Counted from the first letter of the stretch, positions 4,107-11,398 are shown. The stretch is DNA of 11,398 nt from Candidatus Heimdallarchaeota archaeon (GCA_016839945.1 JAEOTE010000012.1:1-11398); one strand, 5' to 3'. Numbers and translations are program-made. Notes: generated by a model not told the origin, from the letters alone.

Positions 4107-5642
4107 TCATAGATGAGATTTTTTCTTCTTTCTATAGAGTTTACAAAGAATAACTAAAAGAGCAATTGAAGATACAAACATTATCAATTCATATCTTGTT
4201 CTTTCAAGATCTTCATTCAGTGGATAAAGGTCTTTAGATTCAGCATCACCATCGATAGGATAAGGATCCTCACTATCCCACTCATTCCAATAGTTGCCTT
4301 CTTGAATTGTTGCTTCATACCATGTACTATTTGTTCCTGCATCATAGGCTTGGGAAGTACCTCCTAGATTATTGTCTATGAAAATGTTGTGGTGAATAAT
4401 GTTGTTATCAGAATTTGAATCTAAGAAAATCCCATACTCATTGTTGTTACTACAAGTATTATTTGTCAAGGTCGCACCAGAGGAAGATTCCAGTCTGAAA
4501 CCAGCCAAGTTTTTACTGCAAGTATTATCCATTAAAGTCACACCAGATGAACCAAACAGTTCGATACCATAATCATTATTGTTACTACAAGTATTATTTG
4601 TCAAGGTCGCACCAGAGGAAGAAATCAGTCTGATACCAAACCCATTGTTACTACTACAAGTATTATCCGATAATGTCGCACCAGAGGATTGATACTGTTT
4701 AATACCATATTCATTGTTGTTACAAGTATTATTCGTCAAGGTCACACTAGGGCAAATATCCAGTCTGATACCATGAACATTGTTGTAACTACAAGTATTA
4801 TCTGTTAATGTCGCACCAGAGGAATCATACAATCTGATACCATAATCAATGTTGTTACTGCAAGTATTATCCATTAATGTCAAACCAGAGGAAGATTCCA
4901 GTTCGATACCAAACAAATTGTTACTACAATTATTATTTGTCAAGGTCGCACCAGAGGAAGAAGCCAGTTTGATACCATAATTTTTGTTGTTACTAAAAGC
5001 ATTATCCATTAATGTCGCATCAGAGGAAGAAGCCAGTGAGATACCATAATCATTATTGTTACAAGTATTATTCGTCAAGATCAAACCAGAGGAAGATTCC
5101 AGTCTGATACCAGAGGCAAAATACATATGGAGACCAGGAATAGTATTGTTACTACAAGTATTATCCGTCAAGGTCGCACCAGAAGAATAAGACAGGTGGA
5201 TCCCATCATAATCATTGTTTCTAACAATGTTGTTTATGATTGAAGCTGTTCCTTCAGCAATATGTGAAATATAGATACCATTAATTGTTGCATCAATATA
5301 ACAATTCTGAATAACAAAGTGCTTAGTTGTACCATTAATATATATACTTCTTTCACTTGTTGTAGTAATATTGTAATCTTCAATAAGGAATGGAATTTCA
5401 GCAGTTCCTGAACCTAGAAAGCCATAATCTGTGAAATTTCCATCATTAATAATTTCAATAGGTCCATGTGTTGTTAAAGATAAATCTAGTAATTTATGTG
5501 AAGTTGTTGATAAAGCTGAATTTAGCTGATCTTCTTTCTGATTATCTGAACTTAACAGAGTAGTTATTGATTGTGCTTTAATGACCAAAGCAAATAGAAT
5601 TATTCCAAAAACAAATATTCCCAATAATATTCTTTTTCTCAT
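4107..5642 (-). CDS. Secreted, C-terminally membrane-anchored right-handed parallel beta-helix (NosD/CASH-like) surface protein
   Basis: Signal peptide MRKRILLGIFVFGIILFALVIKA; N-cap 'THGPIEIINDGNF..GFLGSGTAEIPFLIEDYNI'; repeated 'GIxLxxSSGATLTNNTCSNN'; C-cap 'GNYWNEW..PYPIDG..DLYPL'; TM helix followed by an RKKKK tail. Confidence 0.92.
   Translation of the reverse strand: MRKRILLGIFVFGIILFALVIKAQSITTLLSSDNQKEDQLNSALSTTSHKLLDLSLTTHGPIEIINDGNFTDYGFLGSGTAEIPFLIEDYNITTTSERSIYINGTTKHFVIQNCYIDATINGIYISHIAEGTASIINNIVRNNDYDGIHLSYSSGATLTDNTCSNNTIPGLHMYFASGIRLESSSGLILTNNTCNNNDYGISLASSSDATLMDNAFSNNKNYGIKLASSSGATLTNNNCSNNLFGIELESSSGLTLMDNTCSNNIDYGIRLYDSSGATLTDNTCSYNNVHGIRLDICPSVTLTNNTCNNNEYGIKQYQSSGATLSDNTCSSNNGFGIRLISSSGATLTNNTCSNNNDYGIELFGSSGVTLMDNTCSKNLAGFRLESSSGATLTNNTCSNNNEYGIFLDSNSDNNIIHHNIFIDNNLGGTSQAYDAGTNSTWYEATIQEGNYWNEWDSEDPYPIDGDAESKDLYPLNEDLERTRYELIMFVSSIALLVILCKLYRKKKKSHL
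4431..5204 (-). repeat. Intragenic tandem array of 11 beta-helix units (mostly 66 or 69 bp)
   Basis: The DNA cores are near-identical: the 44-mer ttgttactacaagtattatttgtcaaggtcgcaccagaggaaga is exact at 4444-4487 and 4579-4622, and matches 43/44 at 4918-4961. Confidence 0.95.
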
Positions 5643-5724: not shown

Positions 5725-5752
5725 TATTATTAGTAATAATACTTTATTACTA
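5725..5752. promoter_or_regulatory. Two overlapping AT-rich palindromes in the divergent intergenic region
   Basis: TATTATTA-G-TAATAATA (5725-5741) and TAGTAATAA-tact-TTATTACTA (5731-5752). Confidence 0.4.
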
Positions 5753-5776
5753 CTATATTGTGTTCTTTTTAATATA

Positions 5777-5809
5777 TAAAATTTTTGTATAGATACAAAA
5801 ACTTTAAAA
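5777..5809 (+). promoter_or_regulatory. Inverted repeat (candidate operator) overlapping the BRE/TATA of the AT-hook gene
   Basis: TAAA-A-TTTTTGTAT-AG-ATACAAAAA-C-TTTA (5777-5806), with 13 of 14 arm positions paired. TATA TTTAAAA lies at 5803-5809. Confidence 0.55.
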
Positions 5810-5841
5810 TAAACAGTGAGAGTACTATCATGTGTAATATA

Positions 5842-6465
5842 ATGTCTGAAGTAAAGAGTAAACGTGGAAGACCCAGAAAGTACCCTAAGGAAGACACATA
5901 TGCTAGACAAAAAGCATACTATGAACGTAAAAAGAAGAAAATAAAAGAATTGGAAGAAAAAGTGAAAGCACTTCAAAAAGGCAGAGATTTATCCCCAGCT
6001 CAGAAAAAATTACTTAAAGATCTGGATTTACCAGAGTATGAAACTATTAGTTGGATTAAGATTACACCGAATGAAATAGCTTTAATGGGTATACAAGAGT
6101 TAGAGACAACCATTGAGGATTTTAAGAAAATTGCAGATTATAACGTCCAATTGCGATATTATATTCTCAACCTTATAATAAAAACAATTAGTATAGACTA
6201 TTTACATTCCTCAGATGATTTATCTACAAAAGATCTTTCGAAAATACTGAAAGAAGATGTTAGTAGTATCCTTGATGCAGGATACGAAACAATTCAACAA
6301 CAGATGCTTCTTTATCTTATGGAAGCAGAATTATCAAGCAGAGAAAGATCCTCCACTAGAGAGAAGAAACTAGATATTTTTGAAGCAAAAGTAGAGGAAT
6401 TAGAAAGAGAAGTAAAAGTGAAAGAAAAAGATATTAAGAAGATTGAAAAGCTCACTGAGCAGTAA
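5842..6465 (+). CDS. Putative DNA-binding protein: AT-hook, basic region/short leucine zipper, helical core and C-terminal coiled coil
   Basis: KRGRPRK (5860-5880) is followed by ARQKAYYERKKKKIKELEEKVKALQ; the C-terminus is LDIFEAKVEELEREVKVKEKDIKKIEKL. The start is likely ATG 5842 (or 5830), because the track's TTG 5785 lies upstream of the TATA box. Confidence 0.75.
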   Translation: MSEVKSKRGRPRKYPKEDTYARQKAYYERKKKKIKELEEKVKALQKGRDLSPAQKKLLKDLDLPEYETISWIKITPNEIALMGIQELETTIEDFKKIADYNVQLRYYILNLIIKTISIDYLHSSDDLSTKDLSKILKEDVSSILDAGYETIQQQMLLYLMEAELSSRERSSTREKKLDIFEAKVEELEREVKVKEKDIKKIEKLTEQ

Positions 6466-6519: not shown

Positions 6520-8376
6520 ATGCTTGGTGGTAACAGTACTACTTTACTTGAAATCGAGGAATTACTAAGACACATGAAAGTAGATGAAGTTGCTACTAGG
6601 CTAGTAGAATTTGAAAAACAAGATAATATTACAAAAGAAGAATCTCATAGAGCTAAATTACTTAGAATTAAATTATTATTTGATACAGATAAATGGGGAG
6701 AAGGCTTAGATATTTTAGAACAGATTTTATCTGTGTGCGAGAAAGTAGACAATAAACTAATTTACCTTGATGTTTTGTTTTTAAAGAGCATCTATTACAC
6801 TGAACTTGCATTTCATAATGAAGGAATCAAAAATTCTGAAAGAGGTTTAGATTTAATTAAAGAGCTCAAAATTTTTGATGATGTATTTATCTTAAGAGAA
6901 GCTTGGTTTCTAGTATATAAAGCATTGAATCATAAAATCATAGGCAATCTCAACATAGCAGAAGAAATAATCGAGAAATGTCTAAAACTAGCTAGAAAAT
7001 TAAATGATGAGTATCTTCTTTTTGCAATTTATAAATTCAAAACTAATACACTTTGGGGCATTCGTAATATTCACCAGATTTTCGAATTGTACTTAGAAAT
7101 GTTTGAATTAACAAAAAGGATGAAAAACGATTATCTAATAGCATGGAGTTGTATTTATGGAGCTGAGATTGCACAAATAGTAGGCAGAGGTGATGTAGTT
7201 AAGAAACTTTTAGATGAAGCAGAAGAAGTAATAAAGAAACAAAAAAAGTTGAATACACCATATGAGTGGCTGGAAATTCAAAAAGCTACCATATATTATA
7301 GTCGAGGAGAAATAAGTAAGGCAATATCAGTTTGGAGAAGATTTATTCCTAGACTTAGAAAAAAAATTGTGGATCCCGATAGAGTAGGGGTTCTATTAAC
7401 GTCAGAAAGCATTATAGAACGTTATGAAGGGAATATAGACAGATCAATTGAATTAAGAGAACAACTAATTGCAATGTTCACAAAGATTGGAAGCAAACAT
7501 CGAATCCCTCAGCATAAAGCAAATTTAGCCAGGTGTCTTCTTGTTGCAGGACAATATAATCATGCATTAAGAATATGTCAAGAAATTTTGGAAGACTATA
7601 GTGAGTTCTCAAATGAACTATTGAACAGGTTGATTTTCTTCATTATTGGTAAAATTTACCAAATCCAAGGAGAGTACTATCTTTCCTTGGATTATTTCAG
7701 AAAAAGCCTAAATTTAGGCAAAAAAATACCAGGTGTTGGAATCTTTATAATTCAAAGTCTCTTTCATTCAATTCAACTATTAGTAGAAAAAAACCAAGAA
7801 GAAAAGAGTTACCAATATTTGAGAGAATTGGAGGAGACAATTGAAAAATATCCATCAAAACTTAACAAAAAGTACTATCAAGCAGCAAGAGCAATAATTT
7901 TGAAAGCTAGCTCACGCCCAAAAAACTGGATTCAAGCCTTAATTATTTTTGAAGAAGTAATAGAAGAAATATGGGAAGGAAAGATTATAGATCAAGAGCT
8001 TATCATAGTAGCACTCATCAATCTTTGTGAACTGTTAATGAATGAATTCAGCATTTCAGGAGAAAAAGAAGTAATGGATGAGCTTGAAAAGCATACAGAC
8101 AAATTAGAAGAAATAGCTAATAAGCAAAAATCATTATCGTATATTCTAAGATTAGAAGTGAAGAACATTAGGCTTCATACTATCTGGTTAAAAACCGTCT
8201 ATTCTTTAGCTGATGTAGATTTAAAGAAAGCTAAAGCACTTATAGAAGAAGCAAGAGATATGGCTGGTGAAGAAGGATTAATTCAACTTGCAGAGAAAAT
8301 TAATCAACAACAATCAAAGCTCTATAACCATTTACTTCAATGGAATGAATTTATTCAAAAACAAGATATTATCTAG
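6520..8376 (+). CDS. Tetratricopeptide repeat (TPR) alpha-solenoid protein
   Basis: TPR-like helical pairs such as 'ANLARCLLVAGQYNHALRICQEIL', 'IIGKIYQIQGEYYLSLDYFRKSLNL' and 'KATIYYSRGEISKAISVWRR'. TTTAAG at 6488, about 32 nt upstream of the ATG. Confidence 0.85.
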   Translation: MLGGNSTTLLEIEELLRHMKVDEVATRLVEFEKQDNITKEESHRAKLLRIKLLFDTDKWGEGLDILEQILSVCEKVDNKLIYLDVLFLKSIYYTELAFHNEGIKNSERGLDLIKELKIFDDVFILREAWFLVYKALNHKIIGNLNIAEEIIEKCLKLARKLNDEYLLFAIYKFKTNTLWGIRNIHQIFELYLEMFELTKRMKNDYLIAWSCIYGAEIAQIVGRGDVVKKLLDEAEEVIKKQKKLNTPYEWLEIQKATIYYSRGEISKAISVWRRFIPRLRKKIVDPDRVGVLLTSESIIERYEGNIDRSIELREQLIAMFTKIGSKHRIPQHKANLARCLLVAGQYNHALRICQEILEDYSEFSNELLNRLIFFIIGKIYQIQGEYYLSLDYFRKSLNLGKKIPGVGIFIIQSLFHSIQLLVEKNQEEKSYQYLRELEETIEKYPSKLNKKYYQAARAIILKASSRPKNWIQALIIFEEVIEEIWEGKIIDQELIIVALINLCELLMNEFSISGEKEVMDELEKHTDKLEEIANKQKSLSYILRLEVKNIRLHTIWLKTVYSLADVDLKKAKALIEEARDMAGEEGLIQLAEKINQQQSKLYNHLLQWNEFIQKQDII

Positions 8377-11072: not shown

Positions 11073-11384
11073 CTACTCAATTTTTTCAAGTTTAAAGATT
11101 ACAGGTCTTAATCCATCTGGACATACACCAAAAGATATTCCTTCTCCAATTGTTTCTGGATATCCTCCTCCCCAAGTAAGTAAATGTACATTCTTGAAAA
11201 TACTATTCCATGCATGAGGACAAAATCCTTCTGGCTTATTTCCTGATCCATCTGAAATAAATTCACTTCCTGCCTTCATTGAACAATTTGATACTGTTTG
11301 CCCAGACACAAGAGTATATTCATGTCCGAAAATATCTTCTGGCAAGAATTGCTTTACAACAGTTATTTTAACTTTACTTCTCAT
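11073..11384 (-). CDS. TIGR04076 family protein (start ATG 11384)
   Basis: 'KVKITVVK', 'PEGFCPHAW' and C-terminal 'CPDGLRPVIFKLEKIE'. SD AGGTGA (11395-11390) lies 5 nt before the ATG. Confidence 0.88.
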   Translation of the reverse strand: MRSKVKITVVKQFLPEDIFGHEYTLVSGQTVSNCSMKAGSEFISDGSGNKPEGFCPHAWNSIFKNVHLLTWGGGYPETIGEGISFGVCPDGLRPVIFKLEKIE

Positions 11385-11398
11385 AATAATCACCTACT

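Follow-up and report, generated by a model that had tools for sequence, protein, structure and literature searches.

bZIP factors are generally regarded as a eukaryotic invention, and their known binding sites are built from abutting half-sites of 4 to 5 bp. ParR-type adaptors couple DNA to a partner and also autoregulate. Eukaryotes have their closest known relatives in the Heimdall-group archaea, and the gene we describe comes from this group (Candidatus Heimdallarchaeota archaeon, GCA_016839945.1, JAEOTE010000012.1:1-11398); the whole stretch of DNA that was analyzed, hereafter the window, is 11,398 nucleotides long and has a G+C content of ~30%. The original prediction saw in the gene product a dimeric chromatin or transcription factor with a eukaryote-like architecture, possibly a proto-bZIP. 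Our analysis favors, with a probability of about 0.7, a dimeric autoregulator whose bZIP-like head would bind an 18-bp dyad in the gene's own promoter. In its proposed working the protein resembles a bZIP with added AT-hooks, and membership in the bZIP family is not demonstrable.

Gene and protein architecture

The gene and the parts of its product are listed below, with the basis for each in parentheses.

5842 to 6465, + strand: gene for the AT-hook/basic-helix/coiled-coil protein, 207 amino acids, stop codon included (open reading frame and translation)
5860 to 5880, + strand: AT-hook-like core KRGRPRK, residues 7 to 13 (conservation, Pfam AT_hook)
5896 to 5940, + strand: basic helix resembling a bZIP basic region, residues 19 to 33 (conservation, AlphaFold2, alignment to 7aw7_D)
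5941 to 5979, + strand: short zipper I34/L37/V41/L44, residues 34 to 46 (conservation, GCN4 alignment)
6052 to 6462, + strand: helical body, residues 71 to 207, with a long C-terminal helix (conservation, AlphaFold2)

The coding part of the 207-residue protein spans 5842 to 6462 on the + strand, with residues 1 to 45 corresponding exactly to 5842 to 5976; an in-frame ATG lies upstream at 5830, in a frame that is not kept in the paralog. The translation bears out the KRGRPRK core, the basic stretch, and the I34/L37/V41/L44 heptads of the original prediction. It also bears out two reservations made there, namely, that Thr and Tyr (T19 and Y27) occupy the places of the invariant bZIP Asn and Arg and that the zipper extends for only about two heptads, a length set in the window protein by G47 and P53 beyond L44 and matched by a predicted helix end near residue 48.

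An AlphaFold2 model made from a 55-sequence alignment (mean pLDDT, 80) leaves residues 1 to 18 disordered, including an unstructured AT-hook core (pLDDT, 53 to 68), and continues with a single helix from 19 to 48 that has no break (pLDDT, 86 to 91), a short helix at 52 to 60, and body helices at 76 to 121 and 129 to 206. The body carries the conserved motifs W71-x-KITP-x-EI and QQQ-x-LLYL-x-EAEL, and neither Foldseek against the PDB nor VIA-align wide assigned a fold to residues 71 to 207: the former returned only generic helical hairpins and coiled coils (E ≥ 0.12), and the latter only generic helical matches with Z scores up to 8.8, which is within the noise for helical models. For residues 1 to 60, the best ESM Atlas scores (0.76 to 0.84) were at chance level. 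Runs of a full-length homodimer prediction with the alignment scored 0.48, 0.11, and 0.02, against a mark of 0.42, a spread that favors neither a dimer nor a monomer.

The R-G-R-P core at residues 7 to 13 is flanked by basic residues, as expected of an AT-hook. Against the Pfam AT_hook model, the window protein scored 12.4 bits, below the cut-off of 17.4, and two relatives passed it (19.0 and 17.8 bits). Half of the family has G-G-R-P at this place, indicating that the first Arg is not required.

Conservation and distribution of the family

A word-indexed search of 5.8 billion proteins recovered homologs in 72 clusters at 90% identity, nearly all of them 195 to 225 amino acids long and with E values down to 1e-104. 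Named homologs were all labeled Heimdallarchaeota or "Asgard group," with the exception of one labeled Thorarchaeota, and the guess from the sequence that the host was an Asgard archaeon was thus right. An exhaustive HMMER search of 1.84 billion representatives returned 31 matches at E ≤ 1e-3 that share one architecture, and a scan of 185,579 species genomes yielded 31 loci, every one of them in the Heimdall group. The family is present in 37 of the 400 genomes of the phylum and is limited to three GTDB families; by genus, it was found in 21 of 24 genomes of the window's own genus, in both genomes of the sister genus (2/2), and in 3/22 and 9/11 genomes of two further genera. Copy number reaches six per genome, with some copies in tandem, and the window genome encodes exactly one paralog, on contig C133, with 60% identity.

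NCBIfam gave no match, and no Pfam or NCBIfam model scored above its cut-off for the family. PHROGs matched only coiled-coil stretches (E ≥ 0.055), and the full-length profile found no match among viral contigs, giving no sign that the family as a whole is viral. In the literature searched, bZIP-like or AT-hook proteins of Asgard archaea were the subject of no paper, and neither were the motif strings. Judged by these sequence comparisons, this is a family of small putative regulators (~200 to 300 amino acids) restricted to Heimdallarchaeia and undescribed in the literature searched.

Across 55 relatives with identities down to ~21%, residues G9, R10, A25, and K31 are invariant, and P11, R12, R22, Y26, E28, R29, K30, L37, and L44 are at least 90% conserved (P11 and R12 in 54/55, L37 in 51/55, and L44 in 50/55), with Val, Leu, or Ile at position 41 in 55/55. 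The GRPR arm, the basic helix, and L37/L44 constitute the most conserved portion of the protein, and conservation across the 55 relatives indicates that the motif is not a chance feature of a single sequence. The original prediction had made itself depend on the RGRP core and basic helix being conserved in homologs, and on this point it survives, since the head is the best-conserved region.

Short open reading frames that comprise the head alone (~50 to 75 amino acids: AT-hook, basic helix, and short zipper) were also observed in several genomes, G085, G087, G088, and G084 (for example, G087:C13:12356-12514 and G085:C166:10256-10402); at least one of these has its own copy, at -60, of the dyad described below, and a 50-residue head-only version is recorded under a "Zixibacteria" label (P0154).

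A candidate operator in the promoter

The region upstream of the gene contains two palindromes.

5783 to 5800, no strand: proximal 18-bp dyad TTTTGTATAGATACAAAA, candidate operator (genome pattern scan, conservation in relatives)
5725 to 5741, no strand: distal palindrome TATTATTAGTAATAATA, uncertain candidate site (inverted-repeat scan)

The proximal dyad lies 42 to 59 bp upstream of the ATG, at a perfect 9+9 palindrome (5782 to 5801), with AT-rich TATA-like boxes on either side (5772 to 5781 and 5803 to 5813). A shared dyad, TTTYGTR-N4-YACRAAA, was derived from the upstream regions of 13 loci, where it is present in 13/13 at ~60 bp before the start and is usually accompanied by a second copy 47 to 57 bp further upstream. 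The exact pattern occurs at three sites in the 3,003,036-bp genome, one at the window gene and two before the paralog on C133; as controls in the same genome, the reversed pattern gave 1 match and other spacers gave 0 to 1. Elsewhere, the dyad is found in most of the 31 loci from other genomes, including those of relatives at 25 to 35% identity, in which it reads T(A/T)TTGTC(T/C)CG(G/A)GACAAAA. In genome G087, five of eight loose-pattern sites lie ≤161 bp upstream of its four gene copies, and genomes G084 and G032 are alike in this respect.

The distal palindrome lies ~57 bp upstream of the proximal dyad, where relatives place their second dyad; the paralog and loci L023 and L024 have a consensus dyad at about -118. 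It is itself perfect (TATTATTA-G-TAATAATA), with a TT/AA core in place of the consensus GT/AC, and it may have decayed from the consensus or acquired a different specificity. We also considered a wider regulon, which is rejected for now because one-mismatch dyads outside genes show no excess: they number 5, not counting the three exact sites, against 4 for the reversed control.

That a private palindrome stands in the promoter of this gene, and in those of its relatives, suggests that the conserved head is very probably the DNA-binding part of the regulator, and the dyad symmetry of the site suggests that the regulator is probably dimeric. Of the original notion of a dimeric chromatin or transcription factor, this palindrome lends weight to a dyad-binding, probably dimeric regulator, and the chromatin role found no support.

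Protein and site also appear to vary together. The outer TTTT/AAAA tracts and the GT/AC positions are constant across loci, as are GRPR and R22/A25/Y26/R29/K31 in the protein, and the outer T4-5/A4-5 tracts are consistent with a predicted minor-groove contact of the AT-hook type. The inner bases of the dyad track residue 27: subfamilies with Tyr or His at this position have GTA or GTG with an AT-rich center, and those with Arg have GTC-(T/C)CG(G/A)-GAC with a CG-rich center. This association, which comprises one or two independent lineages only, fits a bZIP-like docking in which residue 27 would lie nearest the dyad center.

Another factor could instead bind the dyads. One alternative holds that the protein does not bind DNA and is a structural coiled-coil protein with a basic N terminus arisen by chance, the palindromes belonging to another regulator. 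The model does consist mostly of long helices with generic coiled-coil structure matches only, and the K/E-rich helices weakly match many coiled-coil families. We nevertheless regard this as highly improbable, given that the invariant residues are GRPR and the basic positions and not the heptad core alone, that the dyad accompanies the gene from paralog to paralog and across genera and families, with no further occurrence in the genome, and that the same head recurs on small bacterial and phage proteins, a few of which have a zinc-ribbon or ribbon-helix-helix-like part.

Relationship to bZIP factors

The profile comparison on which a bZIP assignment would rest went against the window protein, whose Pfam bZIP_1 score of 8.3 bits lies below the cut-off of 27.6 and which gave no match to bZIP_2. 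The best relatives scored 22.1 bits on bZIP_1 (versus 27.6) and 20.8 on bZIP_2 (versus 22.3), and no member of the family reaches either cut-off; bZIP_1 and bZIP_2 are still the Pfam families matched by most relatives (15/27 and 12/27), all below threshold. The Asn-x7-Arg/Lys signature of the basic region is missing from the window protein, with T19 and Y27 at its two places. At the corresponding positions of the 55 relatives, Asn is found in 31 and Arg in 26, showing that some other subfamilies carry the bZIP signature. The fixed distance that separates the first zipper leucine of a bZIP from its basic region (R-x9-L on an unbroken helix) is kept as residue 27-x9-L37-x6-L44, equal to that between the GCN4 Arg and its first two zipper leucines (HMMER alignment and textbook numbering), and the zipper aligns to MKQLEDKVEEL at the start of the GCN4 zipper. 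A bZIP zipper runs for about four or more heptads; the window protein falls short of this, and the actin-paired relatives have about four.

Comparison with solved structures gave a similarly divided result. The best PDB match of the window protein alone was a Yap/Pap-type bZIP, 7aw7_D, at an E value of 0.2 to 0.47, which is not significant; there are 9/24 identities to 7aw7_D over the segment that the original prediction had aligned to Yap, in the register it had proposed, and the basic regions correspond as A25=A, Y26=F, E28=E, and R29=R. Family profiles matched 7aw7_D with E values of 1.2e-3, 2.8e-4, and 5.2e-4, with Pap1, GCN4, and CREB lower in the same register. The generic coiled coil of ABIN1 scored nearly level with the bZIP (E = 0.0035 with a family profile), which implies that part of the signal is that of a generic K/E-rich coiled coil, in line with the warning in the original prediction that such coiled coils match easily by chance.

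These results bear on whether the family is a true evolutionary relative of the eukaryotic bZIPs, either as a proto-bZIP retained in Heimdallarchaeia or as a bZIP acquired from a eukaryote. In favor of kinship, a Yap/Pap-type bZIP is the top solved structure for the family profile (E = 2.8e-4), with Pap1, GCN4, and CREB next in one register; the signature Asn and Arg are present in 31/55 and 26/55 relatives with the R-x9-L spacing kept; bZIP_1 and bZIP_2 are the commonest subthreshold Pfam matches; and the zippers of the actin-paired subfamilies reach about four heptads. We nonetheless consider kinship unlikely, because all members fall below the Pfam bZIP cut-offs (the window protein, at 8.3 bits, having neither signature residue), the score of the ABIN1 coiled coil comes close to that of the bZIP, no more than three GTDB families and 37/400 genomes of the phylum carry the family, zipper-less bacterial and phage proteins are closer to the head (17/25 identity and profile E values of 1e-5 to 1e-3; see below), and the geometry of the candidate operator is unlike that of bZIP sites: it is a dyad, but its conserved blocks are separated by 4 to 6 unconserved base pairs. 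What stands of the proto-bZIP proposal is the architecture, a hook core followed by a basic helix and a short coiled coil; bZIP membership and a specifically eukaryote-like origin are not supported, in view of the scores below cut-off and the closer bacterial and phage arms.

Bacterial and phage proteins with a similar head

A profile of the head alone (A4) recovered many bacterial proteins of 41 to 97 amino acids with E values of 1e-6 to 1e-3 in 5.8 billion sequences, as well as three IMG/VR phage contigs with 55 to 59% G+C, on which GRPR-x-Y...AYRERKK closes a small protein that has no zipper. Named bacterial carriers include proteins of Laribacter and Vogesella. The window head is identical to an 81-residue Vogesella protein at 17/25 positions (68%), spanning the hook and the basic stretch, and the relative at locus L033 is identical to the same protein at 17/24 positions without gaps; in many of these bacterial proteins, [TS]-[ND]-A stands at the position of the signature Asn. 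Some bacterial head carriers reach the Pfam AT_hook cut-off, some run on into a ribbon-helix-helix-like tail, and a few small ones have a zinc-ribbon. Precomputed annotation placed a RepB-RCR_reg (PF10723) match in 4/120 bacterial proteins among the matches listed; in our own Pfam scan of two, P0184 scored 15.8 bits on RepB-RCR_reg against a cut-off of 21, and P0161 gave no match. A tblastn search with the 50-residue head against phage and plasmid collections returned no match, and the low-complexity filter probably masks this K/R-rich query.

The arm of the bacterial and phage proteins is marked by GRP-x2-Y followed at equal spacing by A-x-R-x2-A-Y-(R/Y)-x-R-K, and the window protein has this pattern. 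These proteins are also small and have no coiled coil past the arm, whereas the arm of the window protein leads into a zipper and a 140-residue body. The 17/25 identity to zipper-less arms indicates that the closest sequence relatives of the head are prokaryotic and viral. On sequence grounds, the head is thus one instance of a basic-arm motif, "GRP...AYRERKK," that is shared more widely among prokaryotes and phages, and the apparent peculiarity of the Heimdall family lies in the attachment of this arm, in bZIP register, to a predicted coiled coil and helical body. One may speculate that a prokaryotic and phage "GRP...N-x7-R...RKK" arm was the evolutionary source of the bZIP basic region, with the Heimdallarchaeial family as a surviving intermediate toward the eukaryotic bZIPs and some members already controlling actin genes; we think it quite improbable that events took this course.

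Gene neighborhood and the link to actin

Two neighbors flank the gene and its upstream region.

6520 to 8376, + strand: downstream neighbor, 618-residue TPR protein (Pfam TPR_12, E = 8e-13)
4107 to 5642, - strand: divergent neighbor, 511-residue membrane-anchored right-handed beta-helix (NosD-like) surface protein (Pfam Beta_helix, E = 7.5e-72)

The beta-helix gene and the regulator have a common control region of 199 bp, and the divergent arrangement is also seen at the paralogous locus and at L013, L016, L021, L023, and L024. At the paralogous locus, too, a TPR gene directly follows the regulator, as it does in relatives whose regulators are as little as ~43% identical. The three-gene module (beta-helix protein, regulator, and TPR protein of ~610 amino acids) is duplicated in the genome, the copies being 33%, 60%, and 33% identical, respectively, and it recurs in relatives. 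The 54-bp gap between the regulator and the TPR gene contains a conserved T-rich stretch and a TTTAA-type (TATA-like) box, suggesting that the TPR gene may have its own promoter. A regulator-TPR operon was also considered and is doubtful for the window subfamily, owing to the T-rich stretch and the TATA-like box in this gap. At the TPR start codon lies a TTTTGTA half-site, and it shows no conservation.

Further features of the surroundings were observed. The beta-helix protein carries a signal or anchor at its N terminus and ends in a hydrophobic tail, and it has a paralog at G000:C133:42059-43267 on the - strand; beta-helix genes are found near distant family members too (L036, L039, L041, and L046). 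At loci L017 to L022 (for example, L017:3261-3791, - strand), a conserved gene for a protein of 166 to 177 amino acids with no Pfam match separates the regulator, in close relatives, from a beta-helix or oxidoreductase gene; the window has no such gene. The window also encodes a TIGR04076-family protein (11073 to 11393, - strand; E = 4e-18), a GYD-domain protein (178 to 495, + strand; E = 1.8e-27), and such ordinary neighbors as a GH3 glycosidase, a DegV protein, and a beta-lactamase-fold protein.

Loci L034 to L046 hold two deeply diverged sister subfamilies that lie on the same strand as, and directly upstream of, two actin-family genes (for example, L044:4779-5969, L035:4913-6049, and L040:4635-5846). 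Regulators at actin-linked loci are ~250 to 315 amino acids long, have zippers of about four heptads, and are 25 to 35% identical to each other; the two actins, of 378 and ~402 amino acids, are ~37% identical (Pfam Actin, E = 5.8e-130). At eight loci, the gap between regulator and actin is 26 to 36 bp and contains a strong AGGAGG-type ribosome site, and paired TTGTC-N4-GACAA dyads lie upstream in the actin-linked loci.

This linkage raises the alternative that the protein is a DNA-tethering adaptor and not a transcription switch, with dyads that act as anchors in the way that parC does for ParR and couple DNA to the TPR protein or to actin. Such a role is favored by the finding that the regulators of two deeply diverged sister subfamilies immediately precede two different actin-family genes, by the paired upstream dyads 47 to 57 bp apart, and by the occurrence of bacterial head carriers with a ribbon-helix-helix-like tail or, in 4/120 among the matches listed, a RepB-RCR_reg match. 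It seems improbable to us all the same, since each locus has no more than one or two dyads, which lie on the core promoter of a chromosomal gene, the window has no actin partner, and the full-length profile finds the family absent from viral contigs. Because ParR-type adaptors autoregulate too, the two roles would in any case be compatible.

Proposed function and significance

The reading that we prefer remains a dimeric autoregulator. Its head would combine a basic helix with an AT-hook-like GRPR arm, predicted to be unstructured, in front of it and a short coiled coil behind it (two heptads in the window subfamily), and it would bind as a dimer to TTTTGTA-N4-TACAAAA, an 18-bp site within the core promoter of its own gene. 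The location of the dyad in this core promoter leads us to propose that the protein controls its own transcription; the divergent surface beta-helix gene, which shares the control region, is probably controlled as well. In the geometry that we envisage, the invariant GRPR arms would occupy the minor groove at the outer T/A tracts, which are likewise invariant, and the basic helices would read the inner bases, which are those that vary between subfamilies, and the helical body (residues 71 to 207) probably adds dimerization or partner contacts. Weighing against this proposal, a two-heptad zipper is too short to hold a classical bZIP dimer alone, the operator blocks are 6 bp apart in a site of 18 bp in total, unlike abutting bZIP half-sites, and the distal site of the window is off the consensus core.

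If correct, this would be a rare case in which both the binding site and the targets of an Asgard transcription factor are predicted, the targets being its own gene, the surface beta-helix protein, and, for the sister subfamilies, actin genes. An archaeal regulator that combines a bZIP-like layout, an AT-hook, and a testable, private candidate operator, in Heimdall archaea, offers a concrete system for asking whether such heads have a pre-eukaryotic origin or arose by convergence. Should the protein be only a look-alike, it would still represent a new lineage-specific family of archaeal regulators with a defined candidate operator.

Comparison with known systems

The likeness to ParR/parC (type II, ParMRC) applies to the sister subfamilies only, in which a small autoregulator, predicted to bind dyads, is found with an actin-family gene behind repeated palindromes. 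The window module has no actin, the gene order differs, the fold of the family is not ribbon-helix-helix, and the actins are of the eukaryote type and not ParM. With the HMGA-type AT-hook (PF02178), the window protein shares R-G-R-P with Lys/Arg flanks in a region predicted to be unstructured, and the candidate operator ends in T4-5/A4-5. It has a single hook, however, which scores below the Pfam cut-off, and its arm is fused to a helix that would read sequence, unlike an architectural factor.

The Yap1/Pap1-type bZIPs (PF00170 and PF07716; 7aw7 chain D, "BZIP domain-containing protein"; 1gd2, Pap1) provide the best solved-structure match of the family profile, and in common with them the family has a basic helix that passes directly into a coiled coil, the register of the A-(Y/F)-(R)-E-R-K core, x9 from residue 27 to the first zipper Leu, and a probable dyad target. 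The window protein differs from these factors in its Pfam scores below cut-off, its Thr and Tyr in place of the signature Asn and Arg, its two heptads, the AT-hook-like arm that precedes the helix, and the 140-residue helical body that follows; the candidate site, at 18 bp with an unconserved center of 4 to 6 bp, is also different, and the family is archaeal and present in few lineages only. In the bacterial and phage proteins with the "GRPRKY..[TS][ND]A..R..AYRERKK" arm, which has no name, the zipper is absent, the motif either forms the C terminus or precedes a small domain of ribbon-helix-helix-like or other type, and none has the W-x-KITP/QQQ-x-LLYL helical body; what they share with the window protein is the AT-hook core, the spacing, and the basic stretch.
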